Shown piece after piece: positions 10,556-30,723 of a stretch of 32,000 bases of DNA. The first letter of the stretch is position 1. The number at the start of each line of letters is the position of its first letter. Source of the DNA: Ktedonobacterales bacterium (lineage in GTDB: Bacteria > Chloroflexota > Ktedonobacteria > Ktedonobacterales > JADMIN01); assembly GCA_030167145.1 (NCBI GenBank), contig CP126532.1:2850001-2882000 (forward strand), written 5' to 3'. The position numbers and the translations under genes are program-made. Below the pieces are notes generated by a model, which ran no database searches, was not told the DNA's origin, and saw only the letters and a list, made by a program, of their open reading frames with translations.

Positions 10556-10585
10556 TTGACAGATAGAACATTTGTTCAGTATACT
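10556..10585 (+). promoter_or_regulatory. Sigma70-like promoter, cassette copy A
   Basis: TTGACA (10556-10561), 18-nt spacer, TATACT (10580-10585). Confidence 0.6.
10566..10577. promoter_or_regulatory. Perfect GAAC-N4-GTTC palindrome (Cheo/LexA-box-like) inside the promoter A spacer
   Basis: GAACATTTGTTC. It is the only perfect N4-spaced GAAC/GTTC palindrome I found in the window. Confidence 0.5.
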
Positions 10586-10650
10586 CGTAGCGTCGGACGT
10601 TGAAGATGGAGTGCGAGATTCCGTAGCGCGTCTGGACAGATGTGTTTTTG

Positions 10651-10680
10651 GGCGGTGAGTCCGAGTAGGACGCCGCTCTC
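10651..10680 (+). promoter_or_regulatory. Conserved leader motif, copy A
   Basis: GGCGGTGAG-tccgagtag-GACGCCGCTCTC. Compare 21060-21089 and 27126-27154. Confidence 0.6.
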
Positions 10681-10723
10681 TCCCGTGGAAGGCCGCGGGC
10701 AGAGAGCGGCGTTTTGCTTTTTT
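10671..10723 (+). terminator. Intrinsic terminator within the leader, upstream of the protease RBS
   Basis: CGCCGCTCTCTCCCG (10671-10685) pairs with CGGG-c-AGAGAGCGGCG (10696-10711), followed by TTTTGCTTTTTT (10712-10723). Confidence 0.75.
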
Positions 10724-10759
10724 GAGGGGACTCGCAGATGCGGGAGGGAGTGAGACAAG

Positions 10760-12253
10760 ATGGCGAGGAGAAGCGCGGCAGCGGTTGCGGGGAACGTGGG
10801 AAGCGCCGAAGTGGAACTCGAAGCGCGTGTGGAGGTGGCGGCGGGGATGGCGGGTGATGGCGTGGCGCGGGTGGGCTATGCGCCCATCGTGCGGGTGGAT
10901 GCGCCGCGTCGCGAGGTGGAGTTGTGCGCGACGAGTGAGGCGGTGGATTCGTATGGGACCGTCTTTGATTACGCGGCGAGCAAAGAGGCGTTCACACGGT
11001 GGCTGGGGAATGTGCGTGAGATGCACGACCGGCGCGCGGTGGGGCGACGGGTGGCGGTGCGCTGCGACGATGAGGCGCGGCGGATCTTCGTGCGGGTGCG
11101 GATCTCGGCGGGTGCGCGCGATACGTGGGAGAAGATTGCGGATGGGACGCTGCGCGGGGCGAGCATCGGCGCGAGTGATGTGGTGTGGGAGCGGCAGACG
11201 CGGCGGATTGGCGGGCAGGAGCGCACGTTGAACGTGGCGACGCGCTATGAGTTGGTCGAGTTGAGCCTGGTGGATAACCCGAGTAATCCCGATGCGCTGG
11301 GCATTACGATTGTGCGTGCGGCGACGCCTGATCCGGCGCTGTTGGATGCGCTGGATGCGGATGGGGCGATGGCGGAAGATGCGGCTGATTATGGGTACAC
11401 GCCGTGCGCCCCTACGGTGGCCGGTGGGGAGGGCAGGGATGCTGGCGCAGTGGCAAGGGTGTCTGCCCCACCGCGCGTGGGTGATGTGGGAACGAGCGCG
11501 CAGACAGGAATGTCCGCGCTACCGCAGACAGGGATGGTTGCGCGAGCAGAGGAGGAGATGGTTGGACGGATAGAGGAGGAGCGAGCGCTGGGGCCGTTCA
11601 GCGCGAATGCGGAGGGGCAGCCGGATATGGGGGTGCCCGCGCGGGCAGAGGAGCGGCCAACGAGCGCGTTGGAGAAGGGCGCACGCCATGCGCCCCTACT
11701 GATGCCGGATGGCAATGCGCGCGAACGGTTTCATGCGGCGGCGCGGAGCATCTTGCTGGGGTGCGGGTGCCCGCTCTGCGCGGGGGCTATCGCGGCGCTG
11801 GGCGAGGACGGTGAGGATGGCGGCGAGCGGTCGCAGGAAATGCGTGACGGCGGAGCGGCGGCGGTGACGGGATTGCGCGAAGCGGCGCTGGCACGGGCGC
11901 TGGCGGCGGGGCTGGGCGCGAGTGTGGCGCAGATGGCGCAGATGGATGCGAGCGTGCGGGCGCTGGATGGCCGGGTAGCGGGGGCGCTGGATGCGCTGAC
12001 GGGGACGCTGGGCGATCTGCGGATGCGGGTCGAGCAGATCGAGGCGCAGCCGATGCCGGGGGGTCCGGTGGCGCGTCCGGTTCCGGTGGAGAAGGTTGCG
12101 GCGCTGTCGGCGGGGTATGCGGCGGCGGGTGGTGAGGTGAGCGCAGCGGAGCAGTTTCGCGCGCTGGAGTCGCTGGCGGGGCGGCTGAGTGACCCGCAGG
12201 CGCAGATTGCGGTGGCGGCGGAGTTGATCCGGCTGCGGCAGGCGGGGCGGTAG
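10760..12253 (+). CDS. HK97-family prohead protease (S78/U35-like) fused to a long C-terminal scaffold-like region
   Basis: The N-terminal ~200 aa fit the prohead protease pattern: VELCATSEAVDSYGTVFDYAA..., MHD, GASIGAS and ELSLVDNPSNPDA. The C-terminal ~300 aa are Ala/Glu/Arg-rich and helical in character. GGGAGGGAG RBS 9 nt upstream. Confidence 0.85.
   Translation: MARRSAAAVAGNVGSAEVELEARVEVAAGMAGDGVARVGYAPIVRVDAPRREVELCATSEAVDSYGTVFDYAASKEAFTRWLGNVREMHDRRAVGRRVAVRCDDEARRIFVRVRISAGARDTWEKIADGTLRGASIGASDVVWERQTRRIGGQERTLNVATRYELVELSLVDNPSNPDALGITIVRAATPDPALLDALDADGAMAEDAADYGYTPCAPTVAGGEGRDAGAVARVSAPPRVGDVGTSAQTGMSALPQTGMVARAEEEMVGRIEEERALGPFSANAEGQPDMGVPARAEERPTSALEKGARHAPLLMPDGNARERFHAAARSILLGCGCPLCAGAIAALGEDGEDGGERSQEMRDGGAAAVTGLREAALARALAAGLGASVAQMAQMDASVRALDGRVAGALDALTGTLGDLRMRVEQIEAQPMPGGPVARPVPVEKVAALSAGYAAAGGEVSAAEQFRALESLAGRLSDPQAQIAVAAELIRLRQAGR
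11671..11699. repeat. REP-like hairpin element lying in-frame inside the protease-scaffold CDS
   Basis: GGAGAAGGGCGCACGCCATGCGCCCCTAC with hairpin GGGCGCA/TGCGCCC. It is translated as EKGARHAPL. A near-identical copy (2 mismatches in 23 nt) is intergenic at 12335-12357. Confidence 0.6.
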
Positions 12254-12655: not shown

Positions 12656-14176
12656 ATGGGAACGAGTCTGTACACGCCGGGGCCAGTTGGCCCGACGATT
12701 TCGGATGAGACGGTGGCGCTGGTGCGCCAGGCGATTGCGGAGACGACACGGGCAATCACGACGACGAGCGGACTGCTCGGCTATGAATTGGAGACGCCGG
12801 CGAAGGTGATCGTGCCGGTGATCACGCCGCTGGTGAATATGCTGCCCCGGCGCAAGGGACGTGGCGTGGACGTGGTGCATTGGAAGGCGATCACGTCGTT
12901 CGATACGGCGCGGAACTGGGGCACGCTGGCCGATGGCGGCACGCCGCAGAGTGTGACGTATGCGGTGGCGCAGTTGCAGAACACGCTGCAAACCATCTCG
13001 CTGATGAACTCGGTGAGCTTTCAGGCGCAGTGGCGTGGGCGTTCGCTGGAGGCGGATGTGCGAGCGCGGCGCGTGGCGGAGTTGCTCTATCAGCTCAAGA
13101 TGACGGAGGAACGCTGGATTCTGGGGGCGAGCGCGTATCTGATGACGCCGCCCGCGCCGGTGCTGGCGACGGCGACGACCGGCGGCACGGTGGCGGCGGG
13201 GACGTACTGGGTGGCGGTGACGGCGAAGAACGCGCAGGGCGAGACGCTCGGCTCGACCTTTGCGAAGATCGTGACGACGGGCAGCACCAGCACGGTGACG
13301 ATCACGATTTTCACTGTGCCGAACGCGACGCAGTACAACGTGTACATCGGCAGCGGTGGGAGCCAGCCCGCGGCGAGCGCGATGTGGCTGCAAGCGGGCA
13401 TTTCGGGGGCGAACGCGGCGCAGCCGAACGTGGGCGCGAGTGTGACGCTGGCGGATGGCGCGACGGTGATGCCGTCGGGCGAGGTGAACCCGGCGTATCT
13501 GACGGTGACGCTGAGCGCGCCACCGGCGACGAGTGGCACGGCGCTCTCGACAGTAGCGGCGAACACGGCCAAGACATTCGTGGACGGCTCGAACAATGTG
13601 CTGATGTGGGACGGGCTGATCGCGCAGGCGCTGAACAACGCGACGACGGCGAATGGCGCGACGCTGGGGGCGCAGGTGACGCAGCCAGCAGACCCAACTG
13701 GCAAACTGGCGCTGTCGGATATTGATAATCTGCTGGCGGGCATGTATTTGCAGGCGGCAGGCGACCCGGACTACATTGTGATGAATCCGCTAGACAACGT
13801 GCGGCTGACGAATCTGGTGGTGGGCGCGGGGCAACTGCGCTATGTGGTGCAGGCGGGGGATAGCGCGGACCAGGGGCAGCTCACGGCGCAGTACCGGGTG
13901 ACGCGGTATCTGAACAAGAGCACGGGCAAAGAGATGCCGATCATCCTGGATCGCTATTGCCCTCAGGGGTGCATCGTGTTCTTGCCGGTCTCGATTCCGT
14001 TCCCGGTGCCGGAGATCAGCACGGCGGTGGAGCTGGAGACGAACCAGGAATACTGGGGCGTGGACTTCGCGATCACCGACAGCAACTTCAAGTTCGCGGA
14101 CTTCGTGGAAGAGACGCTGAAGGTGTATTTCCTGGGTGGATTGGGGGTGATTCGCGGGATCTATCCGAGCTTCTAA
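12656..14176 (+). CDS. Phage major capsid protein (probably HK97 fold) with a large internal insertion domain
   Basis: Sits directly after the prohead protease. The N-terminal pattern GYELETPAKVIVPVITPLVNMLPRRKG...VHWKAIT and EERWILGAS is capsid-like. GGAAGGAAG..AGAGG RBS before the ATG at 12656. Confidence 0.75.
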   Translation: MGTSLYTPGPVGPTISDETVALVRQAIAETTRAITTTSGLLGYELETPAKVIVPVITPLVNMLPRRKGRGVDVVHWKAITSFDTARNWGTLADGGTPQSVTYAVAQLQNTLQTISLMNSVSFQAQWRGRSLEADVRARRVAELLYQLKMTEERWILGASAYLMTPPAPVLATATTGGTVAAGTYWVAVTAKNAQGETLGSTFAKIVTTGSTSTVTITIFTVPNATQYNVYIGSGGSQPAASAMWLQAGISGANAAQPNVGASVTLADGATVMPSGEVNPAYLTVTLSAPPATSGTALSTVAANTAKTFVDGSNNVLMWDGLIAQALNNATTANGATLGAQVTQPADPTGKLALSDIDNLLAGMYLQAAGDPDYIVMNPLDNVRLTNLVVGAGQLRYVVQAGDSADQGQLTAQYRVTRYLNKSTGKEMPIILDRYCPQGCIVFLPVSIPFPVPEISTAVELETNQEYWGVDFAITDSNFKFADFVEETLKVYFLGGLGVIRGIYPSF

Positions 14177-14372: not shown

Positions 14373-15530
14373 CTAGTTATCGGGAACGGTGATGCGGACG
14401 ATTTGGCCGGAGCCAGGGGGGAAGCCGAAGCCAAAGGTCGAGACGTAGAGCTTGCCGTCGGGGCCGAAGGCCATCGCGGTGGGGAAGGTGAGACCTGAGG
14501 CAATCGTTTCGACCGCGCCTGAGCGGCTGACGCGCACGACCGCGCCGGTGCCTGGCGTGGGGCCGGGGCCGCTGACGGTGGTGGTTTCGAGTACGTACAT
14601 ATTGTTGTCTTCGTCGAAGGCGAGACCGAGCACGGTGGTGAGGCCAGGGATGAAGACCTTGATGTTCCCGCTCGGCGTGATCTTGAAGATGTTGGAGGAA
14701 CCGGCGACGACCGGGAAGGTGTCCAGGTTGCCGACGAAGAAGTTGCCATGGTAAGCCAGGGCGGTGGGCACGATGTGTCCCTGGCTGGCGGAGATGTCAA
14801 TCACGCGGCTGATGTCGCCGTCTGGGGTGATCTTATCCAGTTCGCCGTGGTTCGGCTCGACGGCGTAGAGATTGCCGCGAACGACGATCAAACTCCACCA
14901 CGTGCCGTCCGGCTCGAAGTCGTCGGGTTCGGGGTTTTTGACGGGGTGGCTCTGCTGGAACGCACTGAGGTTGGCGATCAGCTTCCAGGAGCCGTCGCGA
15001 TTCACCCGAATGATGCCGTTGGGGATGTTGGCGACACCATGTGAGCAGCCCGCGCCAGCCAGAAGGGCGTAGAGCCTGCCGTTGAGGAATGCGATGGCCG
15101 CCACTCCGCTCACCAGGCTGCCAAGCGCCGGACTGGTTTGACTGGAGGGGAGATTGTCGGCAACGGTGGTGCGGACGCCATTCTGGTTGAAGCGGGAGAT
15201 GCGGGCGGTCATGCCGCTGGTGTAGGGGCCGACCGGGGGAATGACCTGGGTACACTGGCCGACGGTGGAAGTGGATCCGCCGGTGCCGCCTTCGGCGACG
15301 TAGAGGTTGCCATCGGGGCCGAAGGTGAGGCCACGAGGGTTGTTCAGGCCGGTGGCGAAGACGGTGATGCGGGCGGTGTGGGCGCTGGTGGCGTGGGCCT
15401 GCTGTGGCGCGATGACGGAGGCGAGGGTGGTGACGAGGAGTAGCGCGCCCGCTATCCCCAGAAATATCCGCGAGCGTTGAGCAGGCGGAGAGAGTCGAAG
15501 GCGCTGATGGAAGATGGTAGCAACGGACAT
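14373..15530 (-). CDS. Secreted NHL/ScyD-ScyE-like beta-propeller protein
   Basis: N-terminal signal/TM segment. Motifs GLNNPRGLTFGPDGNLYVAEGGTGG, LAFDEDNNMYV and MAFGPDGKLYV are typical of NHL-type propellers. Confidence 0.7.
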   Translation of the reverse strand: MSVATIFHQRLRLSPPAQRSRIFLGIAGALLLVTTLASVIAPQQAHATSAHTARITVFATGLNNPRGLTFGPDGNLYVAEGGTGGSTSTVGQCTQVIPPVGPYTSGMTARISRFNQNGVRTTVADNLPSSQTSPALGSLVSGVAAIAFLNGRLYALLAGAGCSHGVANIPNGIIRVNRDGSWKLIANLSAFQQSHPVKNPEPDDFEPDGTWWSLIVVRGNLYAVEPNHGELDKITPDGDISRVIDISASQGHIVPTALAYHGNFFVGNLDTFPVVAGSSNIFKITPSGNIKVFIPGLTTVLGLAFDEDNNMYVLETTTVSGPGPTPGTGAVVRVSRSGAVETIASGLTFPTAMAFGPDGKLYVSTFGFGFPPGSGQIVRITVPDN

Positions 15531-15933
15531 GGTTCATGCTCCTTCGCATGTGGTGATGACGTGTGGAATCAGACGCGCTGGGCGTCCATGACGTGGGTGA
15601 GGGGGTGCGCCATCGCACAGGTGACGCGCTAAACAGCCATTCGCAGTACACACATCCGCACTACTCGCATATTTCAGCAGAGGTTACTGGTCGCTCTCTA
15701 CCACCCCCTTCATTCATCAGCAGATGCCAGTAGATCTCGTGGCGGCTTCGCGCCGCATCGAGTATGTATTGTTCAGCTTGCTCGGCTTTTTCGGAGCGCT
15801 TACTGCAATTCTTATGCCAGCAATGCTCATATCATGATAGAGTAAGACAGGCGGGCGCATAGAAAAGAGCGCCCTGGGGAACCGCATATGAGACGGTTGC
15901 CAGGGCGCTGGGTAGATGCGAGATGGGGCGAAA

Positions 15934-16602
15934 CTAGGGTGCGGGTGGTTGGGGTTGGGCGCCCATGGGTGGCATCGTCATGGGTTTGTATTGGTCCACG
16001 ATGGGGAGTTCGTAGGCCTCGCGGACCGGCGGGGCGACGGCGAACGGGACGACTTTGGTCAGGTTGCGCGCAAGGTTGCCGCTGGCCTCGCTTGCCGTCA
16101 GAGCGGCCATGGTTTCCCACAGGCTAATCCCGATGCCCTTGCCGCTGGCGCGATCAACAAGGAGCAGCGCGCCGGTGAAGCCCTTCTGTTGCCGGACATC
16201 AGGAAAGATGGAATCGCGAACGGTACGGATGGCTTCGTCTATCTTGTTCAACTGATACTGGCCGGTGAGCAGGCGAGCGATGGGCGCAGCGCCGCTCTTT
16301 GGCATCAGCGGCTCGTACACAGCGACCTCGCAGGTTTCGCGCACGGGTGGGGCCGCGAGCAATGGGGTGATCTTGGCGACTTGCTGCTGGTAATAGCCGG
16401 TGGTCTCACTGGCGCGCAGGTCGGCTTCGGTCTCCCAGAGGGAGATGGCAATGCCTTTGCCGCTGGCGCGGTCAATCAAGCCGAAGAGATGGGTACAGCC
16501 TTGTTGTTGGCGGGCCGCTGGCGAGATGCTATCGCGGATGACGCGGACGCCGTCGTCAATCTTGCCGGGCTGATACTGGACGGTGGTCAGTCGTGCGTGC
16601 AT
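15934..16602 (-). CDS. Tandem ABM/Dabb-like (ferredoxin-fold) domain protein
   Basis: Two internally repeated ~100-aa halves (IDRASGKGIAISLWETEADL and VDRASGKGIGISLWETMAAL). GAGGAG RBS before the ATG at 16602. The upstream part of ORF 15934..17088 looks non-coding. Confidence 0.6.
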   Translation of the reverse strand: MHARLTTVQYQPGKIDDGVRVIRDSISPAARQQQGCTHLFGLIDRASGKGIAISLWETEADLRASETTGYYQQQVAKITPLLAAPPVRETCEVAVYEPLMPKSGAAPIARLLTGQYQLNKIDEAIRTVRDSIFPDVRQQKGFTGALLLVDRASGKGIGISLWETMAALTASEASGNLARNLTKVVPFAVAPPVREAYELPIVDQYKPMTMPPMGAQPQPPAP

Positions 16603-17014
16603 GGTGGTCTCCTCGTTGGGTAGTTCTTGTTGGTTGGTACTGTGCAGGGCCGACGCGCGCCCTGGACGCTTCGTTTGCGTTCCATGCGCGGGGACGTGCG
16701 TGGGGAGGCCGCACGACTCATGCCACCATGCTTTTATGTCATGGGGTGATGTATGGATATGTCGCGATGCCCAGGTGCGTGTTGGGACGCCGATGAGATT
16801 ATTCGTAGTCCTCGCAGCGTGAATGCTGCGGGTAATCCCGTTTTCGGGGTGGATGATGGCTACGCCAACGACGCAACAGAGGGTGGTACGACTACTTTGA
16901 AGGTAGCTGCCAATATCATTGAACTGGTGTGGCTGTTGTTGTGAATTGCTATGGCTAGCGTATAGAGTATTGGGGAAGAATAGTGTGTCTCGGTGGACCA
17001 TATGAGGCGGGAGT

Positions 17015-17485
17015 ATGGGCGCAGATATCAATGGGTGGGTTGAAATCAGGGAAGAACATGCGGATGCGTGGCGCGGAGTCATCCGCATAGACGACCTCGT
17101 GCATCGGTCTTATGGCATGTTTTGTAGTCTTTTTGGTTTCCGTAATTGGCCGCACAGATTCAGACCGGTTGCGCCGGAACGTGGTGCGCCGCCAGGAGCA
17201 TCAGCGGAGTATGAGGACGAGCGCGATGGTTATGGCGGGCCGGTCGGTGAGACGTGGATATTATGGAGCGAGTTTGCGGATATCAATTGGAATGAGGAGG
17301 GCAGACAATATATTGATGAGGAAACGGACTACGTTGAATCGTTGCCAGGACTACGACGCCACCGCGAGCGCAGAGGAGACTATCTTGTTGATGGATGGGT
17401 CACACTATTTGAGAAAATGGCAGCGCTGGCAGAGGAGTTCGGTGCTGAGAACGTTCGGTTGTCGGTTTGGTTCGATATGCGATAA
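17015..17485 (+). CDS. Hypothetical acidic protein
   Basis: 156-aa ORF, AT-richer than its surroundings. Its stop is 9 nt before the Rieske gene, whose AAGGAG RBS overlaps the 3' end (operon-like). No family recognised. Confidence 0.5.
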   Translation: MGADINGWVEIREEHADAWRGVIRIDDLVHRSYGMFCSLFGFRNWPHRFRPVAPERGAPPGASAEYEDERDGYGGPVGETWILWSEFADINWNEEGRQYIDEETDYVESLPGLRRHRERRGDYLVDGWVTLFEKMAALAEEFGAENVRLSVWFDMR

Positions 17486-17494
17486 GGAGTTCTC

Positions 17495-18511
17495 ATGTCA
17501 GCGCAAACGGGATTGCCGCCATATCCCAATGGGTGGTTCGTGATTGGCTTCTCGGATGAGGTGCGGCCAGGGAGGCTGCTGGCGCGGCAGTTCATGGGGC
17601 AGGAGGTGGTGGTGTTTCGCACGCGGTCGGGCAAGGTGTGTGCGGCGGACGCCTATTGCCCGCATCTGGGCGCGCATTTCGGCTATGGGGGCCGCGTGGA
17701 GGGGGAGTGGTTGCGCTGTCCGTTTCACGGCTTTTGCTTCGATACGCAGGGAAGTTGTGTGAAGACGGGGTATGGCACGAAGCCGCCGCCGACGGCGCGG
17801 CTGAAGCTCTGGCCGCTGCGCGAGCAGAACGGGCTGCTGCTGGTCTATCACGATGGCGAGGGCGCGCAACCGACGTGGGAGGTGGCGGCGCTGGAGACGG
17901 AGGGGTGGACGCGCCCGATTTGTCGCGCGTTCACGCTGCGCGATCATCCGCAGGAGACGACGGAGAACAGCGTGGACATCGGGCATTTCGCTTTCGTTCA
18001 CAAGTATCGAGATGTGCGGGAACTATGCGAGATACAGACGGATGGGCCGTATCTGAGCACGGCCTACGCGGTGCGGCGGGCGGCGCCGCTGGTGGGGCGG
18101 GTGTGGCGCGGGCTGAGTTTTGCGTTCGAGTTCGAGACGCAGATTTATGGGCTGGGGTACTCGCTGGTGCGGCTGTCTGTGCCCGCGCTGCGGCTGCGGG
18201 CGCGGCTGTGGGTGCTGCCGACGCCGCGCGACGAGGAGCGGCTGACGCTGTGGCTGGCGATGAGCGCGCGGATTCCGTGGACGGGGCACGCAGGCAATCC
18301 GCTGGCGCGGCTGCCGGGGAAGGCGCTGGCATGGCTGCTCGCGCGGTTGGTGTTGATGGGGCTGGCGCATGACGCGCAGCAGGATTTTCCAATTTGGGAG
18401 CATAAGCGGTATGTGCAGCCGCCCGCGCTGGCGAAAGGGGATGGCCCCATCGGCAGGTATCGCGCGTGGGCGCGGCAGTTCTATCGCCAGGAGGGACAGC
18501 AGGAGACGTAG
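17495..18511 (+). CDS. Rieske [2Fe-2S] non-heme iron oxygenase alpha-subunit-like protein
   Basis: CPHLGAHF...CPFHGFCF is the Rieske motif. The catalytic-domain pattern NSVDIGHFAFVH is present. Confidence 0.85.
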   Translation: MSAQTGLPPYPNGWFVIGFSDEVRPGRLLARQFMGQEVVVFRTRSGKVCAADAYCPHLGAHFGYGGRVEGEWLRCPFHGFCFDTQGSCVKTGYGTKPPPTARLKLWPLREQNGLLLVYHDGEGAQPTWEVAALETEGWTRPICRAFTLRDHPQETTENSVDIGHFAFVHKYRDVRELCEIQTDGPYLSTAYAVRRAAPLVGRVWRGLSFAFEFETQIYGLGYSLVRLSVPALRLRARLWVLPTPRDEERLTLWLAMSARIPWTGHAGNPLARLPGKALAWLLARLVLMGLAHDAQQDFPIWEHKRYVQPPALAKGDGPIGRYRAWARQFYRQEGQQET

Positions 18512-18514
18512 TGG

Positions 18515-19600: not shown

Positions 19601-19999
19601 CTATCCGTCACGCTTGGCCAGCCAGTAGAGCGCGGTATCGGTGAGCGCTGCGCTGAACGCGAGCGCGCCGAGGCCGATGAAGCGCGGATGGCGGTGGCCC
19701 TGGCTGATGGCGAGGCCTACGGATAGCACGTCGCCGCCGTCGGTGAGGGCGCGGGCGAGCAGCCACGGCGCGTAGTTGCCGCCATGCGTGGCGGCGGACC
19801 ACATGCCGATGCCCATTACTACATCGCGCACGCCGAGCGAGCGCATCATGGAGGCGGCCTGGGCATCAGGAGCGCGGAAGCCAAAGAGGCGGGCGAATGA
19901 GCGTGGGGCGAGCGTAGGCAGCGCGCCAAAGGCGAGCATGGCCAGTCCAAGTCCCGAAGTGAGGCGGCGTGTTTGGGGGGCGTCGGGCAGTTGTCGCAT
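19601..19999 (-). CDS. Small membrane protein (DUF4267-like)
   Basis: Four hydrophobic segments. GGAGGA RBS 8 nt upstream of the ATG at 19999. The family assignment is from memory only. Confidence 0.5.
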   Translation of the reverse strand: MRQLPDAPQTRRLTSGLGLAMLAFGALPTLAPRSFARLFGFRAPDAQAASMMRSLGVRDVVMGIGMWSAATHGGNYAPWLLARALTDGGDVLSVGLAISQGHRHPRFIGLGALAFSAALTDTALYWLAKRDG

Positions 20000-20327
20000 G
20001 GGTGTATTCCTCCGCCGCGACACAGTGAGTGCGCGGATGAGCAGAGAGCGGCGCGAAGCGGCTGTGCGCGGAAGCGTGGCCTACCGCACGGCGGGTGGGA
20101 CGCTTCCTCATCGAATCATAACGCATGGCGCTCAGGCGCTGGCACGCAAGTTGCCTGAGAATCTGCTGATAGGCTTTTCGGCGTGCATAGCGCGATGTAC
20201 CGTGCCATGCCATGTTTCCACTGGAGGCCCAGGACATGCGGCGAGGAGCATATGGGCATGGCAGACACGCGCCTGACCGTATGAACCCCAGCAATCCGGG
20301 AGATGACCGGGCTGGAGGAGGATTCCG

Positions 20328-21059: not shown

Positions 21060-21089
21060 GGCGGTGAGCCTGAGCAGGGCGCCGCTCTC
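21060..21089 (+). promoter_or_regulatory. Conserved leader motif, copy B
   Basis: GGCGGTGAG-cctgagcag-GGCGCCGCTCTC. Confidence 0.6.
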
Positions 21090-23246: not shown

Positions 23247-23564
23247 ATGATTTTCACGACGGTTCGGTTGGAGCGGCCAGAGGGGACGGCGCTGTTGCAT
23301 GGCATCGGCGCGCAGATCGAGCAGGCCGCGGCGGATGACCTGGCGCGCGCTGAGTTGGAAGGTGCGCGTCCGTATGATGTGTTCTGGCTCTACACAACGC
23401 AGGGTGTGCCAGCGGTTCCGCTCCAGCGGCGCGATGTGCTCTTCGACGAGCAGAACAACGACCTCGAAACTGGCCAGCCCGCCAAATATCGTGTCGCGGG
23501 GCTGGTCGAGACTTTCGATAACGATCATCAAGAGGCGCTCTGCGAGCGTGTCGTGGGAGGATAG
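23247..23564 (+). CDS. Phage head-closure / head-tail joining-like protein
   Basis: 105 aa. The size, its position after the connector, and the C-terminal pattern DVLFDE....YRVAGLVETFDNDHQEALCERV resemble gp7/SPP1 gp16-type proteins. This is pattern memory only. Confidence 0.45.
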   Translation: MIFTTVRLERPEGTALLHGIGAQIEQAAADDLARAELEGARPYDVFWLYTTQGVPAVPLQRRDVLFDEQNNDLETGQPAKYRVAGLVETFDNDHQEALCERVVGG

Positions 23565-23572
23565 GGAACATC

Positions 23573-24115
23573 ATGCCAGGCCCGGTTACGCTGCCCGGAC
23601 AGCCAGCGACCTTCGCCGCGCTCCAGGCGATGCAGTCCGTGATTCTGAGTGAATGCCTCGTCGGTGGAGTGTCGCCGTTCGCCGCGCTCTCGTCCGCCGA
23701 TATCGCGCGCTTCGGCGTCGCCAATGCGGTGTTCATCGGCCAGCCGAAAGATTTTAAGGATGCCTATCTGCCGCAGTGCAGCCTGTGGATTCCGCCGGAG
23801 AGCGAGAGCGCCGCGCTGCTGGGCTTCGCGGGGCGCGCCGTGGCGGAGTTCGAGGCGCGGGTGCGTGTCATGGTGGATCTGCGCGCGGACTGGTACGCCG
23901 CCGAGCAGCAGATACTGGCGATTCGCGATGCGCTCTGGCCGGTGCTGCTGCGGCACGAACGCCTGGGCGGGACGGTGACGAGTGTCGTCGCGGGCGAGGC
24001 GCGAGCCGGGCGTGGCCTCTGCTATGAGACGGTGGCGGGCGCGCAGTATCGCTGCTTCGAGGCGCTGTGGTGGGTGCGCCAGCAGTGGAACATCACCGGT
24101 GGGCACGTCGCCTGA
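23573..24115 (+). CDS. Phage neck / tail-terminator-like protein (DUF3168-like?)
   Basis: 180 aa, translationally coupled to the previous gene (its GGGAGGA RBS overlaps that gene's stop). The positional argument is stronger than the sequence argument. Confidence 0.35.
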   Translation: MPGPVTLPGQPATFAALQAMQSVILSECLVGGVSPFAALSSADIARFGVANAVFIGQPKDFKDAYLPQCSLWIPPESESAALLGFAGRAVAEFEARVRVMVDLRADWYAAEQQILAIRDALWPVLLRHERLGGTVTSVVAGEARAGRGLCYETVAGAQYRCFEALWWVRQQWNITGGHVA

Positions 24116-24405: not shown

Positions 24406-25320
24406 ATGCGAAGACTATCCGTTATCGCTCCGCATCATGCGCGACCCGCCATGTTCATTGCGCTGACGCTCGCGTTGCTGCTCTCCGCCTGTTCGCGTGC
24501 GGCGGGAGGCGCGCGGCCATCGCTGAGCATCACGCAAGGAACGGCGGCGGCATCGGCTACCACGATGGCATCGCCTACGGGGACGGCGCGGCCCACGGCC
24601 ACGACTGCGCCTGGCGGGGCGTACACGTTTCCGCAGATTCTCCCAGGCGCGGCGCTGCCGAGCGAGGCGACCTGCGCCGCACGAGTGCAGCGATCTGCAT
24701 GGGAGCCGCGTCACGATAACGCGGCGGCGAATGTGCGCGTACCCACGAGCGCGCAACTTGCCGGAATCGCGCCGTGGGACGGCGGGATGGGTCTGAATGG
24801 GAAGGCTGATGGCCTGCGGAAACACATGACGGGCGACTTTACGGGCACGACCGATGAGATTCTGCAATGGGTTGCCTGCGTATGGGGCGTGCCGGTGGAT
24901 GTGGTACGCGCGGAGGCTGTCGTCGAATCGTACTGGCATCAGAGCCAGCGCGGCGACTGGACCACCAGCCAGAACTATTGTCCGCCGGGCACGTGGAATG
25001 GTTCCGGCTGCTATCAGAGCTACGGCATTCTGCAAATCAAGTATCGCTACTTCGGCGGCACGTGGCCGATGAGCCGCGATGATACCGCCTTCAGCGCCGA
25101 ATATGTCTATGGGATGTTGCGCGCCTGCTACGAGGGTTGGACCGATTATCTGTACGACCGCACGCCGCTACCGGGCTATCCGCGCTACGGCGCGGGCGAT
25201 CTCTGGGGCTGCCTGGGCCGCTGGTATAGTGGCGGCTGGTACGATCAGGGCGCGGTGGACTACATCGCCAAGGTCAAGGCTGCCCTCGCGCAGAAGATCT
25301 GGCGTGCGTCGGGATTCTGA
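24406..25320 (+). CDS. Lipoprotein with a C-terminal lytic transglycosylase (SLT/lysozyme-like) domain
   Basis: Lipobox LLLSAC after a hydrophobic signal, followed by a Thr/Ala-rich linker. AEAVVESYWHQ (catalytic E-S) and SYGILQIKY (GLMQ-like) match SLT motifs. Confidence 0.65.
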   Translation: MRRLSVIAPHHARPAMFIALTLALLLSACSRAAGGARPSLSITQGTAAASATTMASPTGTARPTATTAPGGAYTFPQILPGAALPSEATCAARVQRSAWEPRHDNAAANVRVPTSAQLAGIAPWDGGMGLNGKADGLRKHMTGDFTGTTDEILQWVACVWGVPVDVVRAEAVVESYWHQSQRGDWTTSQNYCPPGTWNGSGCYQSYGILQIKYRYFGGTWPMSRDDTAFSAEYVYGMLRACYEGWTDYLYDRTPLPGYPRYGAGDLWGCLGRWYSGGWYDQGAVDYIAKVKAALAQKIWRASGF

Positions 25321-25505: not shown

Positions 25506-25534
25506 TTGACGCCGCTTGCTCACCGTACTACACT
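25506..25534 (+). promoter_or_regulatory. Sigma70-like promoter upstream of the propeller gene (site D)
   Basis: TTGACG (25506-25511), 17-nt spacer, TACACT (25529-25534). Confidence 0.45.
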
Positions 25535-25556
25535 GTTTTGGCGAACAGGGCGGGCG

Positions 25557-25579
25557 ATGTGAGCATGGCGCCGCTCGTC
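25557..25579 (+). promoter_or_regulatory. Partial copy of the conserved leader motif (site D)
   Basis: ATGTGAGCATGGCGCCGCTCGTC shares GTGAG and ATGGCGCCGCTC with copy C. The spacer is 3 nt rather than 9, and I found no clear partner arm. Confidence 0.3.
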
Positions 25580-25620: not shown

Positions 25621-26925
25621 GTGCGGAAGCGTCACATCCTGATTACGTGTACCCTTGTGGTCTCTCTTGCTATGGTGGCAGGCGGTGTCGGACTGGTCGC
25701 GCGTACTGTTCGCGCGCATCCGGCCATTCCCACCATCATCTGCGGCCCATTGATTCACAGCGGGCCTGGTTGTTCTCCCTGGAAGGTTGTTGCCAGCGCA
25801 AATATTGCTTCCAGCAAGAACGACATTCTGCATGGCGCGGCGGCTATCTCATCCAGCGATGTCTGGGCGGTGGGCTACTCTCAGCAGACTACCGGAAGTT
25901 TCTACCAGACGCTCACCGAGCATTGGAATGGCTCCGCGTGGAGCATCGTCGCCAGCCCCAACGGCGGCACGGCTGACAACAAATTGCAGGCTGTCGCTGC
26001 TATCTCATCCAGTGATGTCTGGGCGGTGGGCTACTCGCAATCGAGCGGCACGTATTCCGCGCTCATCGAACACTGGAATGGCGCGACGTGGAGCATTGTT
26101 CCCAGCGGCGCGACTGGTGTTCTCTACAGCGTAGCGGCGCTCGCGACGGACAATGTCTGGGCGGTGGGCATGGCGATCAATCCTGGCGGCGGCTCTTCGA
26201 CGCTGGTCGAGCATTGGGATGGATCGAGTTGGAGCGTCGTGCCCAGTCCCAATGGTTCACTAGTTGGCGGAAACCATCTCTATGGTGTCGCGGCGGTTGC
26301 GACGAACGACATCTGGGCCGTGGGTGGATACGGCGCGGCCAGTGGCGATCAAACGCTGGTCGAACATTGGGATGGCAACACCTGGAGTGTCGTGCCCAGC
26401 CCGAACGGCAGCATCCTCACCAATGAGCTTTTCAGTGTAGCGGCAGCTTCATCCGGGGATGTGTGGGCCGTAGGGTTCTTTAATGTGGCGAGTGGCAATG
26501 GCTCGCAGACGCTGATCGAACATTGGAACGGCACAAGTTGGAACAGCGTGCCCAGCGCGAACTGTGGCACGTACAACAGTCTGTCTGCGGTGGCTGTGGT
26601 TGGGCTTAACAATGTTTGGGCTGTGGGTGGGTGTTCCGGCGCGAACGGACAGACTCTCGGCCAGGCGATGGCAGAGCGCTGGAATGGCACGAATTGGAGC
26701 TACCTGCCCACGGCGAGCACAAGCGCCGCGTTTCCGGGCGCCGCGAATGTCTCGTTGAACGCCATAGCCGTCGCTTCGGCGTCTGACATCTGGGCGGTAG
26801 GGTATGCAGGCGCTGGGGACGGCATCGGGCTGTACCCGAACGCCACCCTGGTCGAGCGCGCAAACATCACCATCACCCGTGGTGGCCTGCTCCATGGGCG
26901 GCTCGCTTTCCCATTCGCTAAATAA
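25621..26925 (+). CDS. Secreted 7-bladed beta-propeller repeat protein (WAVG / EHWNG..WS.VPSPN repeats)
   Basis: Seven ~50-aa repeats of the type ..AAISSSDVWAVGY....TLIEHWNGS.WSIVPSPNG. N-terminal signal/anchor. GTG start with a GAGGTGGAGG RBS. Confidence 0.8.
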   Translation: MRKRHILITCTLVVSLAMVAGGVGLVARTVRAHPAIPTIICGPLIHSGPGCSPWKVVASANIASSKNDILHGAAAISSSDVWAVGYSQQTTGSFYQTLTEHWNGSAWSIVASPNGGTADNKLQAVAAISSSDVWAVGYSQSSGTYSALIEHWNGATWSIVPSGATGVLYSVAALATDNVWAVGMAINPGGGSSTLVEHWDGSSWSVVPSPNGSLVGGNHLYGVAAVATNDIWAVGGYGAASGDQTLVEHWDGNTWSVVPSPNGSILTNELFSVAAASSGDVWAVGFFNVASGNGSQTLIEHWNGTSWNSVPSANCGTYNSLSAVAVVGLNNVWAVGGCSGANGQTLGQAMAERWNGTNWSYLPTASTSAAFPGAANVSLNAIAVASASDIWAVGYAGAGDGIGLYPNATLVERANITITRGGLLHGRLAFPFAK

Positions 26926-27081: not shown

Positions 27082-27110
27082 TTGCGGGAATGGAACATCT
27101 GTTTTAGGCT
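27082..27110 (+). promoter_or_regulatory. Sigma70-like promoter, cassette copy C
   Basis: TTGCGG (27082-27087), 17-nt spacer, TAGGCT (27105-27110). The -10 is weaker. An alternative -35, TTGACG, lies at 27115-27120. Confidence 0.4.
27093..27104. promoter_or_regulatory. GAAC-N4-GTTC-like box (one mismatch) in the promoter C spacer
   Basis: GAACATCTGTTT abuts the -10 element, the same placement as in copies A and B. Confidence 0.4.
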
Positions 27111-27125: not shown

Positions 27126-27154
27126 GCGGTGAGCCGGAATATGGCGCCGCTCTC
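27126..27154 (+). promoter_or_regulatory. Conserved leader motif, copy C
   Basis: GCGGTGAG-ccggaatat-GGCGCCGCTCTC. Confidence 0.6.
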
Positions 27155-27200
27155 TCCCAGGGCTATGCCGTGGGCGGAGGGCGGCGCTATTCGCATTTCG
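27144..27200 (+). promoter_or_regulatory. Leader hairpin, copy C, with a weak U-tract
   Basis: GCGCCGCTCTCTCCC (27144-27158) pairs with GGGCGGAGGGCGGCGC (27172-27187) over about 15 bp with 2 G-U pairs and 1 mismatch, followed by TATTCGCATTTCGG. Confidence 0.5.
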
Positions 27201-27234
27201 GTGGGTGATCGAAGAGAAAGTGAGGTGGGGATTT

Positions 27235-30200
27235 ATGGCGGGGACACTGTTGAAACTTGGCTACTCGAATCCGTTGACGGATAGCTTTGGCGCGCATCCT
27301 ATCCTGGGGCCAGTGCTGGACCTGAACGACGGCGCAACGTATACGCTGCTCGCGCCGGAAGTGGGAGGGATAGAGTTACAGCCGCCGCCGAGGACCATTG
27401 CTTTGGCGGGCAATATCCGCACGCAGGGCGAACGGGCGACACGGGCGCTGTATCGCCACAACCGCACGGTGCGCGTGCCGCTGCTGCTCGGTCCCATGTC
27501 GTCGTATGCGGCGCTCACCGCTGCCCTCCGTGAACTGCTGCAATGGGTCAACGCTGCTCCGCAAGTGCCGATGACGCTGCTGTATCAGCCACCCAACGCC
27601 ACGCAACCCGTCTATCTCGACATCGTGGGTGCGGCGCACTCGCTGCCAGCGGATGAGAGCGATTGGCTGCGGTTGCAGTTAGAGCCGGTGGAACTGGTGT
27701 TCGTCTGCCGTCCTGGGCTGCGTGGGGATCGCATCACCTTGCAGAATCTGGTGAGCAATCCTGGCTTCGAGCAGGGCAGTGGGCCAGGCGTGCCGGTCTT
27801 CACTGAACTCTTCGCCAACCTTGCGGCGTACACGCAGGTCGCAGGGAGTGCGCCCACGCTGGCTCCGGCCAATACGTTTGTGGACGCGCTCATGGCGAAT
27901 GGCGGTAGTGCGCTGCTGGCGTACTACCGGCTGGATGAAACGTCGGGAACGGCGGCGTACGACATCGCGGGGCAGGGGTACACCGGTACGACGCACGGCA
28001 GTCCGACACAGAACGTGGCGGGGTTGCTCAGCGGGGACACGGATGCGTGCTACACCTTCGCCTCGGCCAGCTCGCAATACGTGAGCGTGCCGTCAACTGC
28101 GGTGTTCCCGTCGGGCAATAGCCCGCTTAGTGTCGGCGTGTGGTTCAAGATTGCGAGCGCACCGGCGGCGACGGCGCAGTTGTGGAGCTACGGCGACATC
28201 ACGACGGGACATCATGCGCTCTCGCTGTATCTGGCGACCACGGGCAAGCTGACCTGTGATGTGGGGGCAGGGGCGTCGGTGCTTTCCTCGGCCTCAGCGG
28301 TCTCGAACGCGGTGGCGCACTTCGCGGCGCTGACCTGGGATGGGACGACACTGACGCTGTGGCTGGATGGCGTCTCGCAGGGGACGGCGACACCAGGCGC
28401 ACAATCCATCCCCACGACGCCGACGGTGAACCTGGGGGCGAATGCGACGCCGGCGGCGTACTTCAGCGGGCAACTGGATGAGGCGTGCCTCTGGTCGGCG
28501 GCGCTCTCCTCGACGCAAATTGCGAACATCTACACCGCTGGACATTCTGGCGCGAGCGGCACACTGGCCTCGGCGTTCAGCCTTCCGGTCAGCGGGCAGG
28601 TCAGTTTCGGGAGCGCGCAATGGGCCTCGGTGAATGCGTGGCAGCTACGGTTCCGCTACACCACAGGGCTGACGCTGCGGGCGTTCTTGCATTATGTGGA
28701 TGGCAACAACTACGTGCAGGCGCAGGTGACGGGGACACAACTCAGCCTCGCCCACAAGGTCGGTGGCACCTTCACCACGATCCAGACGGTGACGGTGGCG
28801 CTCACCTATGAGGGGTGGTACTGGCTGCAATGCACGCAGTTCCCTACGGTGAATGCGACGCCAACGACACAGTTCCCGAATGTCAATGCCAACTATCCGT
28901 ATCTCACGGCGGCGGTGACCTACGATGACAATGGGGCGGTGGGGGCGCAGATCGCCGCAGCCAGTGGGCCAGCGGTGGATGTCGCCATCGCGCTGACGGG
29001 TAAGCCGCAGATGCTCGCGCAAGGGGCGGCGCTGGTGGTGGGTGGGAACGTGGTCAATCTGTTCGGGCCAGGGGGATGGAGTGTGGCGACCGGCGGCGGC
29101 GCGGGCGGCCTGGGCGTCACCAGCGTGGCTATCGGTTCGTGGGAACAAGCCTCCGCTAATCTGCCACCCCTCGGCCTGGTCAACGTCAACGCGGGGAATG
29201 CGGTGCAGGTGCCAGTGACCTCGTATGGCTGTGCGCGCTTAGATATTCCCGCTGGTTCCACGGCGCTAGATGCGCGGTGGCAGACACCGACGAGCGGGTT
29301 CGGGCCAAATGGCCTTATCCCGCTTCCAGGTTCCGGCGGCGCAGGGGTCACGCTGGCCTATGCCTTCGCCGCCAACTCCACAGGATTTGCGGGCACGGCG
29401 CGGGTGCAACTCTACTGGACCGAGTACACAGCGGCGGGGGCGGCGCTGGGGACGTATCAGGCTGCAAGCGTGACGCCACCGGCGGGGTGGCAGGGGTACG
29501 CCAGTACCTTCGTGACACAGAATGCGGGGTGCGCGGCGATCTCCATCTTCATCCGCATCCTCGATGCGGCGACGGGGACGAGCGTGGGGGCGGTGCTGTG
29601 GCTCGACAATGTGCAGGTGTGGAGCGTGAGCAGCACAGGGCTGGCAGTGGGCAGCATGCCGTACTGTGAACTGCGGTTCCCGCAGTCGCCCGCGCAGGTG
29701 GTGCTGAGCGGATTGCTGGGTGATCTGCCGTGTCCGGCGGCGCTCAGCTTCGGCGCCTACCTCACATCGCTACCGCAGGGCGGCGCGCTCAGCTTCGCGG
29801 TGGGACGCTCCGCGCAACCTTCGGCGACGGCGCGACTGACGGCGGCGATGAACGGGTTCTATGGGAGCGCGCTCGGCGCGGGGCAGCAGGCGACGGCGGC
29901 GCTGGATGCGACGGCGTATGGGGGCTATACGATCTCGAACAATCCGCAGACGGGGTGGAGCGCGAAGGGGTTCGCGCCGCTGGCCAGTGACGCGCCGGGG
30001 GTGTATCATCTGCTCGAACGGTTCCTCTCGACGCAGAGCGTGGGCAACCTGCCCAATGTGCAGGTGCGGGCGAACACGCAGCAGCGGCTGCTGCCATGGT
30101 TCGGGGCATCCTCCTCAGCCGACCAGCTTGGCAACAGCTATGGGCCGTATGCGGCGCTGCTCTCCGCGAGCAACACGTGGACTATCGTAGACACGGGGCA

Positions 30201-30723
30201 GGTGACGCTGCCGCCCTATAGCCAGGGGGCGATGACGGACCCGACACAAACGTATCTCGTGCCGCATCCGCAGTGGCAAGATCTGACGGCGGGCGGGGCC
30301 ATGTGTAGCGCGAGCTGGTGCGCGCTGCTGCCGATAGATGGGTCGCTCATCGTCGGCGTGGTGAACAATCCGAGCAATGCGGCTTCGGCGCTCTCGAACA
30401 CCTGGCTGTGGACGTATTTCGATGGGCTGCTGGTGAACCGGGCGGCAGCGCAAGATGCGCCAGGGTGGCTCTACTCACTCGAAGCGGTAGCGACGCCGAA
30501 TGCGGCGCATGCGGGTGGTGGGCCAGGGACACAGGGGACGGGGAATGTGAACGTGAACAGTGGGGCCGATCCGTATCTCATCCTTGACCCGACGAGTGCG
30601 CTTCCTCAAACGGGGCAAGCAGGAGTCAATCAACTGGTGGCCTATGTGGCAGATCAGGCGGGTGCGGTGCTGGGATTCGCGGGTGAGGTGAGCTATAGTC
30701 CGTTGTACCTGTGGCCTCGGTAG
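27235..30723 (+). CDS. Large (1163 aa) LamG / concanavalin-A-like lectin domain protein; putative fibre or host-recognition component
   Basis: LamG pattern at about 27910-28539 (LLAYYRLDETSG...GDTDACYTF...SVGVWFK...HFAALTWDGTTLTLWLDG...FSGQLDEACLWSAALS). NPGFEQG and LWLDNVQVW are CBM4_9-like edges. GAGGTGGGG RBS before the ATG at 27235. Confidence 0.75.
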   Translation: MAGTLLKLGYSNPLTDSFGAHPILGPVLDLNDGATYTLLAPEVGGIELQPPPRTIALAGNIRTQGERATRALYRHNRTVRVPLLLGPMSSYAALTAALRELLQWVNAAPQVPMTLLYQPPNATQPVYLDIVGAAHSLPADESDWLRLQLEPVELVFVCRPGLRGDRITLQNLVSNPGFEQGSGPGVPVFTELFANLAAYTQVAGSAPTLAPANTFVDALMANGGSALLAYYRLDETSGTAAYDIAGQGYTGTTHGSPTQNVAGLLSGDTDACYTFASASSQYVSVPSTAVFPSGNSPLSVGVWFKIASAPAATAQLWSYGDITTGHHALSLYLATTGKLTCDVGAGASVLSSASAVSNAVAHFAALTWDGTTLTLWLDGVSQGTATPGAQSIPTTPTVNLGANATPAAYFSGQLDEACLWSAALSSTQIANIYTAGHSGASGTLASAFSLPVSGQVSFGSAQWASVNAWQLRFRYTTGLTLRAFLHYVDGNNYVQAQVTGTQLSLAHKVGGTFTTIQTVTVALTYEGWYWLQCTQFPTVNATPTTQFPNVNANYPYLTAAVTYDDNGAVGAQIAAASGPAVDVAIALTGKPQMLAQGAALVVGGNVVNLFGPGGWSVATGGGAGGLGVTSVAIGSWEQASANLPPLGLVNVNAGNAVQVPVTSYGCARLDIPAGSTALDARWQTPTSGFGPNGLIPLPGSGGAGVTLAYAFAANSTGFAGTARVQLYWTEYTAAGAALGTYQAASVTPPAGWQGYASTFVTQNAGCAAISIFIRILDAATGTSVGAVLWLDNVQVWSVSSTGLAVGSMPYCELRFPQSPAQVVLSGLLGDLPCPAALSFGAYLTSLPQGGALSFAVGRSAQPSATARLTAAMNGFYGSALGAGQQATAALDATAYGGYTISNNPQTGWSAKGFAPLASDAPGVYHLLERFLSTQSVGNLPNVQVRANTQQRLLPWFGASSSADQLGNSYGPYAALLSASNTWTIVDTGQVTLPPYSQGAMTDPTQTYLVPHPQWQDLTAGGAMCSASWCALLPIDGSLIVGVVNNPSNAASALSNTWLWTYFDGLLVNRAAAQDAPGWLYSLEAVATPNAAHAGGGPGTQGTGNVNVNSGADPYLILDPTSALPQTGQAGVNQLVAYVADQAGAVLGFAGEVSYSPLYLWPR

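Follow-up and report, generated by a model that had tools for sequence, protein, structure and literature searches.

How far can the genome of a virus be taken apart inside a bacterial chromosome and still serve as one functional set? The question is raised by a stretch of 32,000 nt from a Ktedonobacterales bacterium (Chloroflexota), hereafter termed the window, in which genes for the head and neck of a phage particle are distributed over separate units among cellular genes. The window corresponds to positions 2,850,001-2,882,000 of a 5,069,600-bp contig (JGI 3300045419, Ga0494333_323), filed at NCBI as a Ktedonobacterales metagenome-assembled genome (MAG) with OJF49_ locus tags. On balance, and with confidence only slightly better than even, we read these genes as part of a dispersed, co-regulated and selectively maintained phage particle gene set that is similar in its logic to a gene transfer agent (GTA). 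We assign this set to a single Ktedonobacterales lineage; it occupies at least four chromosomal stations, two of which fall in the window. Judged by its genes, it resembles a virus that the host has tamed more than a prophage in decay.

A common control region is what ties the units together. The initial annotation had given each module its own copy of a shared cassette, and this is borne out: a 29-nt box (GCGGTGAGYCNGARYAKGRCGCCGCTCTC) is present in three full copies in the window (10652, 21061 and 27126), where none is expected by chance, and each copy is situated 30-90 nt 3' of a promoter, so that the cassette as a whole consists of a promoter with a palindrome and a leader hairpin. The promoter is of the sigma-70 type and features a -35 element TTGNNN, 4 nt and a 14-bp palindrome AGAAC-N4-GTTCT that forms the spacer and overlaps the -10 element TATACT, which opens with the last base of the palindrome. 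Fifteen such promoters from at least nine genomes align on the palindrome with a fixed distance to -35 and -10. In the window they are found on the forward strand upstream of the protease/capsid unit (10556..10585; TTGACA, AGAACATTTGTTCA at 10565-10578, TATACT), of the adaptor unit (20990..21019; TTGCGA, AGAAACTATGTTCT at 21001-21014, TATAGT) and of a unit encoding a LamG-domain protein (27082..27110; TTGCGG, GGAACATCTGTTTT at 27092-27105, TAGGCT). The leader that follows comprises a mini-hairpin of three pairs (CGG-UGAGY-CYG), a purine-rich linker, a hairpin of 15-30 bp and a U-rich tract. Its three copies, likewise on the forward strand, reside at 10652..10725 (with the mini-hairpin GCGGUGAG, the long hairpin and the U tract; z = -7.1; 79.5 bits), 21061..21145 (z = -4.95; 64.2 bits) and 27126..27200 (weak U tract; z = -5.79; 72.7 bits). 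A degenerate fourth copy precedes a propeller gene (25506..25575, +) and retains the 5' half of the leader (…GTGAGCATGGCGCCGCTCGTC) and a promoter-like site, without palindrome and without the 3' arm of the hairpin. RNAalifold derived 18 consensus pairs from 14 distinct leader copies, five of them with compensatory double changes. A stable G+C-rich hairpin, a U tract that is weak in some copies such as that of the LamG unit, and conserved pairing make the leader terminator-like, pointing at an intrinsic terminator or attenuator. No Rfam family matched it at gathering score, the only matches being spurious ones to miRNA-type hairpins.

A covariance model of the leader scored 56-85 bits in every cassette unit, had no match before a cellular gene in 361 kb and left contiguous phage-type clusters, described below, unmatched. 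It is hardly credible, then, that the cassette represents a mobile or repetitive element of intergenic regions, akin to repetitive extragenic palindromes (REP) or miniature inverted-repeat transposable elements, that came to lie upstream of these genes by chance and makes the shared regulation illusory. The genome is indeed rich in repeated hairpin elements, which also occur inside the phage-type units, but all of the approximately 15 distinct full copies of the cassette (361 kb, at least nine genomes) are located just upstream of a phage-type gene in sense orientation, not one precedes a cellular gene, and the promoter part is present even where the hairpin is absent. The hairpin was also considered as an integron attC site or as an end of an IS200/IS605 element; it lies between promoter and gene in sense orientation and lacks core sites, and both readings were discarded. 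A metagenome scan with the 5' box of the cassette returned 72 loci from a collection that does not include the source contig, 11 of them true copies and the rest coding-sequence noise, and a scan of a genome collection with a stricter pattern returned 14 loci, the four true ones all upstream of protease-capsid units. Evidently, the copies within one genome are too divergent for an exact pattern.

Does the same control region reach beyond the window? Searches with the terminase and the portal of a second locus brought further paralogues on the 5.07-Mb contig to light. A solitary portal gene (protein P0278) is located among cellular genes 278 kb upstream of the window (record 2,581,306-2,582,628), and its promoter, ccTTGCCA-taccc-GAACATCAGTTCT-ACACT (ccTTGCCAtacccGAACATCAGTTCTACACT), is of the same design but lacks the hairpin. 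A solitary large terminase gene (protein P0201; record 3,527,019-3,528,380), again among cellular genes and 646 kb downstream of the window, has intact Walker A/B and nuclease motifs and is preceded by an open reading frame (ORF) of 89 codons with the promoter cTTGCCA-gagt-AGAAAATGTGTTCT-ATAGT (cTTGCCAgagtAGAAAATGTGTTCTATAGT). One promoter design thus precedes five units, namely portal, protease-capsid, adaptor/105-aa protein/terminator, LamG protein, and 89-aa ORF with large terminase, that are spread over 947 kb (record 2,581,306-3,528,380). Three of the five carry the leader in this genome, as do orthologous units elsewhere, including those for portal and terminase. No phage family matches were obtained for the neighbours of the solitary portals and the terminase. 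The idea that the set lacks packaging genes accordingly holds for the window and fails for the genome, and the proposal to look elsewhere for terminase, portal and tail genes bearing the cassette led to the first two behind the same promoter-operator here, and behind the full cassette in other genomes, while tail tube and tape measure genes were not located in the approximately 135 kb of this genome that were read. The junction of the capsid gene with a cellular gene, the solitary terminase and the solitary portal are all reproduced in a separate short-read assembly (Logan SRR22113990), and the dispersed arrangement is therefore not an assembly artefact. An intein interrupts an aconitase gene (1416 aa) on the contig that carries the solitary portal of another genome (L107, 15770-20020; loci are numbered with L), and Hint-type domains in a terminase homologue (P0187, 617 aa) suggest that a terminase of this family has an intein as well.

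The surroundings of the units are those of an ordinary chromosome. The genes in window positions 1-10500 and in about 9 kb past each window end are all cellular, and within these bounds, or 49 kb, there is no integrase, portal, terminase, tail tube or other tail gene, nor the contiguous layout of an ordinary prophage with integrase, att sites, regulation and replication modules. This agrees with the initial annotation, which had listed no integrase, repressor, replication, terminase or portal gene in the 32 kb, and the complete prophage in adjacent sequence that would have spoken against it did not appear. Both splits of the gene set described there are likewise present, the capsid and adaptor units being separated by 6.8 kb (14177-20989) of ordinary cellular genes on both strands, and the adaptor gene being followed by a reverse-strand gene for a 343-aa membrane protein (22131..23162, -). 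The latter sits between the adaptor and the 105-aa gene, is missing from the homologous units of three other loci (L006, L077 and L098), and is by this comparison a lineage-specific insertion.

Which parts of a particle are encoded? The first gene of the protease/capsid unit (10760..12253, +) specifies a prohead serine protease of 497 aa with a scaffold-like C-terminal half. Protease-family matches cover residues ~40-190 (phrog_9427 2e-29; weaker ones to Peptidase_S78, TIGR01543 and NF045541), and the protein can be aligned to its orthologues along its full length. It is followed by the gene for the 506-aa major capsid protein (12656..14176, +; phrog_13692 1.2e-55), which is classified as HK97/SU10 type. 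The capsid protein yields tblastn matches to annotated major head proteins of cultured phages, PF17236 (SU10_MCP) is annotated on many of its homologues, with some of the matches weak or faint, and the gene is placed after that for the prohead protease/scaffold; on these family matches it is an HK97-fold capsid protein. In about 250 database clusters, its homologues show 57-89% identity, and almost all of them have a length of 505-506 aa; homologues of the same length with 76-89% identity occur in many Ktedonobacterales MAGs. An encapsulin-like compartment was considered for the solitary protease-capsid pair and rejected, since portal, terminase and neck genes have the same control region.

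Host repeats have entered this unit. REP-like palindromes of several families (CCCCTC…GAGGGG type, GGGCGTCCACCGGACGCCCC, GGGCGCACGCCATGCGCCC) were noted at window positions 11392-11415, 11676-11699, 12257-12393, 14175-14302, 24139-24173 and 6111-6152. They trail the protease, capsid and terminator genes, fill the spacer between protease and capsid genes, and two copies reside in frame within the linker of the protease-scaffold protein. The colonization of spacer and scaffold linker by such hairpins points at a long residence of the protease/capsid unit in its host. The same kinds of REP are present near the solitary terminase unit (L096:9590-9760, a tandem array of four) and in L077:7080-7115.

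The adaptor unit encodes three neck proteins. The 308-aa product of the first gene (21187..22113, +) is by family profile match a head-tail adaptor of the gp6-like type (HK97 gp6/SPP1 gp15), with phrog_442 at 6.6e-11 and TIGR02215 at 9.4e-6, the latter under the curated cut-off; it is 69% identical to its counterpart in L006 and 63% to that in L077. The second gene (23247..23564, +) specifies a conserved protein of 105 aa that adjoins the adaptor in four loci, with 65-72% identity, and for which searches of Pfam, PHROGs, NCBIfam and of the Protein Data Bank (PDB) by sequence and profile gave no match. Its single-sequence AlphaFold2 (AF2) model is unusable (predicted local distance difference test score, pLDDT, 44.7), and position and conservation are what suggest a head-closure or stopper protein. 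The third gene (23573..24115, +; 180 aa) follows the adaptor and stopper-position genes. PDB sequence and profile, PHROGs and NCBIfam searches returned nothing for its product, just as PDB sequence searches returned nothing for the adaptor. A library-wide HMMER search yielded 47 representatives, 22 of which were used to build an AlphaFold model with a pLDDT of 85.4 and a predicted template modelling (TM) score of 0.81. Foldseek aligned this model with T5 p142, lambda gpU and the R2-pyocin collar (9ilv_A 4.8e-5, 3fz2 6.2e-5, 8bcp_A 1e-4; TM-scores ~0.5-0.6), its viral structure matches being named tail terminator, tail completion or DUF3168. As modelled, the protein is a tail terminator or tail-completion protein of the lambda gpU/T5 p142/DUF3168 fold. 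Where there is a tail terminator, a long tail tube is to be expected; podovirus ancestry, which was considered on account of the SU10-type capsid and would account for the absence of tail tube genes, was dismissed because of this fold. The proposed HK97-like gene order of protease-scaffold, capsid, gp6-like connector, head closure and neck can thus be upheld for protease, capsid and adaptor, with the neck gene now read as tail terminator from structure prediction and the head-closure gene placed by position and conservation.

Are the genes maintained or decaying? Substitution ratios by the Nei-Gojobori method (nonsynonymous over synonymous, dN/dS) are 0.11-0.24 for the capsid, 0.10-0.30 for the N-terminal domain of the protease and 0.19-0.37 for the 105-aa protein at dS values of 0.6-1.2; the adaptor gave 0.25-0.5 with dS near saturation. 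Together with matching ORF lengths across genomes, dN/dS values of 0.1-0.3 agree with the earlier view that the ORFs are intact and under purifying selection, and the units recur in other Ktedonobacterales rather than being strain-specific and neutrally evolving. Protease-capsid pairs with cassette are flanked by unrelated cellular genes in L078-80, L101 and L103, and true cassette copies upstream of protease-capsid genes were recorded in L042/L084, L044/L061, L059/L078-80/L091, L090, L093, L100, L101 and L103. The cassette is followed by adaptor, 105-aa and terminator genes in L006 and by the large terminase gene in L032/L051, and in L107 a solitary portal gene with the full cassette is located 87 kb from a cassette-bearing protease-capsid unit on the same 1.57-Mb contig.

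These observations bear directly on the main rival to the reading that we favour, according to which the units are scattered remnants of a widespread temperate phage family whose late genes natively used this promoter and leader and which reached their present places by repeated integration and the heavy rearrangement that is usual in these genomes, without present function. We consider this unlikely, though several features of the data are what such fossil fragments would leave behind: paralogous copies are present at several places in one genome (L077, L095, L096, L105 and the window), terminase genes are truncated in some strains, the scaffold-protease gene of L103 is split, unit flanks are never conserved, the protease gene of L077 has a diverged promoter-hairpin of similar design, and L103 contains an orphan box with hairpin. 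It is difficult to reconcile with dN/dS values well below 1 and identical ORF lengths across genomes at dS 0.6-1.2, with the same unit boundaries in independent genomes (protease plus capsid, portal alone, terminase alone), with a non-coding promoter-operator and leader conserved at fixed spacing, with contiguous clusters that have neither the palindrome nor a covariance-model match, and with a single copy of each dispersed unit in the genome parts examined. We favour a dispersed, co-regulated set over phage remnants because the same minimal units, conserved control sequences and low dN/dS are found in several genomes and because the units are non-redundant in the parts of the genome that were read.

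A number of observations weigh against a maintained GTA-like set all the same. The flanks of the units are without homology in any pair of genomes compared, in contrast to the vertically inherited GTA cluster of Alphaproteobacteria. Of the two comparisons proposed for related genomes, the substitution ratios were favourable and synteny was not; unrelated flanks are more readily explained if units were relocated or spread horizontally than by vertical descent alone. The terminase gene is intact in L051 and is replaced after ~55-80 codons by unrelated membrane-protein DNA in L019, L029 and L033, the cassette and upstream DNA of which are 95-97% identical to L051, indicating strain-level polymorphism. 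The protease-scaffold gene of L103 is broken into two ORFs, and the portal and terminase units of the genome studied here lack the leader hairpin. In the approximately 135 kb of this genome that were read, tail tube, tape measure, baseplate, holin and endolysin genes were not identified, nor was a clear small terminase, the unannotated 89-aa ORF before the large terminase (TerL) being the only candidate. Phage ancestry is at best putative for three proteins encoded downstream of the neck genes, i.e. the LamG protein, a propeller protein and a 289-aa protein.

The same genome furthermore contains a contiguous paralogous cluster (L077, 1-21491; record 3,366,704-3,388,194) in the order protease-scaffold (797 aa), capsid (88% identity to that of the window), two small genes, adaptor (63%), 105-aa protein (71%), portal, small terminase (TerS), TerL and a gene for a 321-aa protein. 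No recognizable tail, integrase or replication genes and no family-annotated regulators are present in it, and a diverged promoter and hairpin precede its protease gene (7240-7390). A duplicate of its TerS-TerL-321 part with 90-95% identity resides elsewhere in the genome (L095, 9277-12261; record ~333,700-336,700), and L077 and L095 together show that recurrent prophage input is real. This duplicate adjoins a gene for an IS605-type TnpB and one for a Tc-toxin-like protein of 3407 aa. The contiguous gene order of L077 is shared by a contig from IMG/VR (L098); scans of IMG/VR with the capsid, the LamG protein and the portal gave one contiguous cluster of 16 kb and one chromosomal fragment of 87 kb. 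With 88% identity and a dS of 0.58, the capsid of the window is as near to that of L077 as to its dispersed-type orthologues, so that the capsid does not divide the two types cleanly. Traits that set the dispersed type apart from the contiguous one are short portals, a protease-scaffold protein of 473-523 aa instead of ~800 aa, and the palindrome with leader. The solitary portals (L105, 10001-11323, and L107, 10001-11470) lack the C-terminal ~45 aa of contiguous-type portals and have basic low-complexity N-terminal extensions.

Co-residence of the two types invites two further explanations. It is conceivable, if improbable, that there is no autonomous GTA and that the dispersed units supply neck or tail parts to, or are exploited by, contiguous islands of the L077/L098 type. 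These islands encode protease, capsid, adaptor, 105-aa protein, portal, TerS and TerL and no tail terminator or tail, the window provides a tail terminator and candidate distal proteins, and identities between proteins of the two sets are 62-88%, such that mixed assembly is conceivable. Yet no integrase, replication or regulatory genes were recognized in L077, five proteins are encoded in both sets, which is redundancy rather than complementation, a portal and a terminase are already present in the dispersed set, and the promoters of the two sets differ. We regard as very improbable that capsid, portal and neck proteins are SOS-induced decoys that poison the assembly of related phages as a form of defence and give rise to no useful particles. 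The strong conservation of capsid and portal behind direct stress-type promoters, the C-terminal truncation of both solitary portals and the presence of related phage-like clusters in the same genome are compatible with such a role; an intact terminase with catalytic motifs behind the same promoter speaks against it, as do protease, adaptor and terminator, which a decoy would not need and which are kept under selection. PADLOC-type evidence for a defence function was neither sought nor found. Gene content links L077 and L098 to capsid-forming phage-inducible chromosomal islands (cf-PICI), which also have protease, capsid, adaptor, connector, portal, TerS and TerL and no tail. A cf-PICI, however, is integrated as one discrete island, encodes an integrase, regulators and replication functions, and is packaged as a unit, whereas the units of the window lie dispersed between cellular genes and none of the loci showed an integrase.

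What might switch on a dispersed set of this kind? The palindrome overlaps core promoter elements and conforms to GAAC-N4-GTTC, the LexA box of Gram-positive bacteria (PMC3323433). A perfect copy (AGAACGTAAGTTCT, box 3347-3334) is present in L090 at the promoter of a gene for a Y-family-polymerase-like protein (ImuB/DinB-like; 3326-2109, -), which is located directly downstream of the capsid gene of that genome. Polymerases of the Y family (DinB/ImuB-like) are typical SOS gene products, and the motif is reportedly also bound by a LexA from the Chloroflexi, that of Dehalococcoides. These features support the palindrome as a putative LexA operator; a dedicated repressor of the same specificity may be at work instead. 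Two genes upstream of the solitary terminase unit lies a gene for a helix-turn-helix regulator of the WYL/PafC type (L096, 7359-8381), a group that controls DNA-damage responses in Actinobacteria. L103 has an orphan palindrome at 5684 with weak hairpin matches to the leader model on either side (23-28 bits; 5564-5760), and no sense gene was called downstream.

The arrangement of the leader recalls lambdoid late control, in which the constitutive promoter PR' is followed by the terminator tR' and termination is overcome by Q, and antitermination of the BglG type at ribonucleic antiterminators, since here, too, a strong terminator-like hairpin is placed within about 100 nt past the promoter and before structural genes. 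As in the BglG-type systems, a conserved sequence lies just 5' of the terminator and overlaps its 5' arm (GCGGUG can pair with CGCCGC). In contrast to these systems, no Q-, N- or BglG-like protein was identified, the promoter itself bears an operator, and termination at the leader is predicted.

Compared with established domesticated particles, the closest parallel is RcGTA of Rhodobacter capsulatus, which has a multilocus "genome" (PMC5026251). Like RcGTA, the set described here consists of chromosomal phage-derived head, neck and packaging genes under purifying selection at several loci with shared regulation, and it is too dispersed for packaging by its own, here putative, particle. A link to the SOS/LexA network has been discussed for GTAs in general. 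RcGTA differs in having a contiguous head-tail cluster of ~15 kb, the synteny of which is conserved across hosts, along with a small number of accessory loci. In the set described here, not even portal and terminase share a locus; each forms a station of one gene, and the flanks are unrelated. The RcGTA switch is an activator (GafA) together with the CtrA phosphorelay instead of a repressor-type palindrome with leader hairpin, and its tail and lysis genes are known, whereas none were found here. The relationship between the two is one of shared folds and not of sequence, as illustrated by the RcGTA virion (6tba), which the terminator matched at E = 0.057. To our knowledge, GTAs are known from a handful of lineages, each with a recognizable prophage-like core cluster. 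PBSX of Bacillus subtilis and the R and F pyocins are also domesticated phage structural genes, expressed upon DNA damage and non-propagating, and damage control is suggested for the present set by its promoters. They differ as contiguous clusters with dedicated repressors and activators (Xre; PrtR/PrtN), pyocins moreover being headless, while the Ktedonobacterales set has dispersed head, neck and packaging genes with a LexA-type box on each structural promoter. The closest cultured phage by capsid protein, Thermoanaerobacterium phage THSA-485A (33% identity), shares the homologous capsid gene preceded by a large gene in scaffold/protease position, yet is an ordinary contiguous siphovirus with the order terminase, portal, scaffold, capsid, neck, tail, tape measure.

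The remaining genes of the window are of uncertain bearing. Downstream of the terminator, a gene at 24451..25320 (+) encodes a secreted protein or lipoprotein of 289 aa, the membership of which in the system is uncertain. It had been labelled a lytic transglycosylase, a label that finds no support, as no SLT or lysozyme-like match and no family match of any kind was returned from Pfam, NCBIfam, PHROGs or PDB sequences. The next gene (25672..26925, +) specifies a secreted repeat protein of 417 aa that is beta-propeller-like (repeats D2, D3; phrog_27227 7e-12). The giant LamG protein of the initial annotation is confirmed as a protein of 1162 aa (27235..30723, +) with a LamG/ConA-like domain at residues ~289-440 (PF13385 5.6e-19); outside this domain no phage or PDB homologue was detected, the IMG/VR scan was empty, and we consider the protein a candidate fibre or host-binding component. 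Five nt past its stop codon begins a perfect tandem repeat of 10 nt (AGGTAAGCCA, ~8 units, 30728-30813). The intervening cellular genes (14373..20909, both strands) are placed outside the system by Pfam matches on the called genes (NHL propeller, ABM, Rieske/KshA, PHB-esterase, DUF4267, YGGT); in one of them (15934-16623, -) the ABM (antibiotic biosynthesis monooxygenase-like) domain is tandemly duplicated, which is visible as an 80-nt DNA repeat with 73% identity at a spacing of 318 nt. A 51-nt repeat with 92% identity occurs at 1-51 and 7232-7282, 7.2 kb apart. The G+C content of the window is 58-70%, its GC skew is positive all along, and it contains no tRNA genes.

How, then, would such a set operate? 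DNA damage would derepress all units together if the palindrome is indeed a LexA operator, and the leader hairpin would act as an attenuator and second checkpoint that needs an antiterminator or permits leaky read-through only. The products would build a portal-containing HK97-type head into which the terminase packages DNA and which is closed by adaptor, stopper and tail terminator. A particle of this kind could not carry its own genome because the genes are scattered, and the packaged DNA would be that of the host, as in a GTA; upon DNA damage, a subpopulation of cells would package and export chromosomal DNA. Phage-derived structural genes are resident in the chromosome and, at 947 kb, the particle genes are not packageable together. 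Head, neck, portal and TerL genes were found in the sequence read, and a full complement of head, packaging, tail and lysis genes was not. The initial proposal of a domesticated, GTA-like system therefore stands as far as phage origin, intactness, dispersal, selection and common cassettes are concerned, and falls short with respect to tail and lysis genes, conserved flanks, paralogous clusters and terminase truncations. Solitary portal and terminase genes under the same control strengthen it; the missing tail and lysis genes, the unconserved flanks, the truncations and the paralogous cluster keep it from being proven. Only tentatively, with the odds rather against it, do we suggest the more specific scenario of an independently evolved GTA of the Chloroflexota, the genome of which has been atomized into stations joined by a LexA-operated promoter and a leader attenuator.

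If a dispersed set of this kind is real, with portal and terminase standing alone and a common promoter and leader as the one mark of membership, it would be invisible to prophage and GTA search tools, which rely on contiguity. It would also illustrate to what extent a viral genome may be taken apart by domestication and yet stay expressible as one unit. The leader RNA, without a match in Rfam, is a candidate for a new cis-regulatory element with a defined regulon. For the Ktedonobacterales themselves, a large and little-studied group of mycelial soil bacteria, the set would provide a testable link between the SOS response and the export of DNA.

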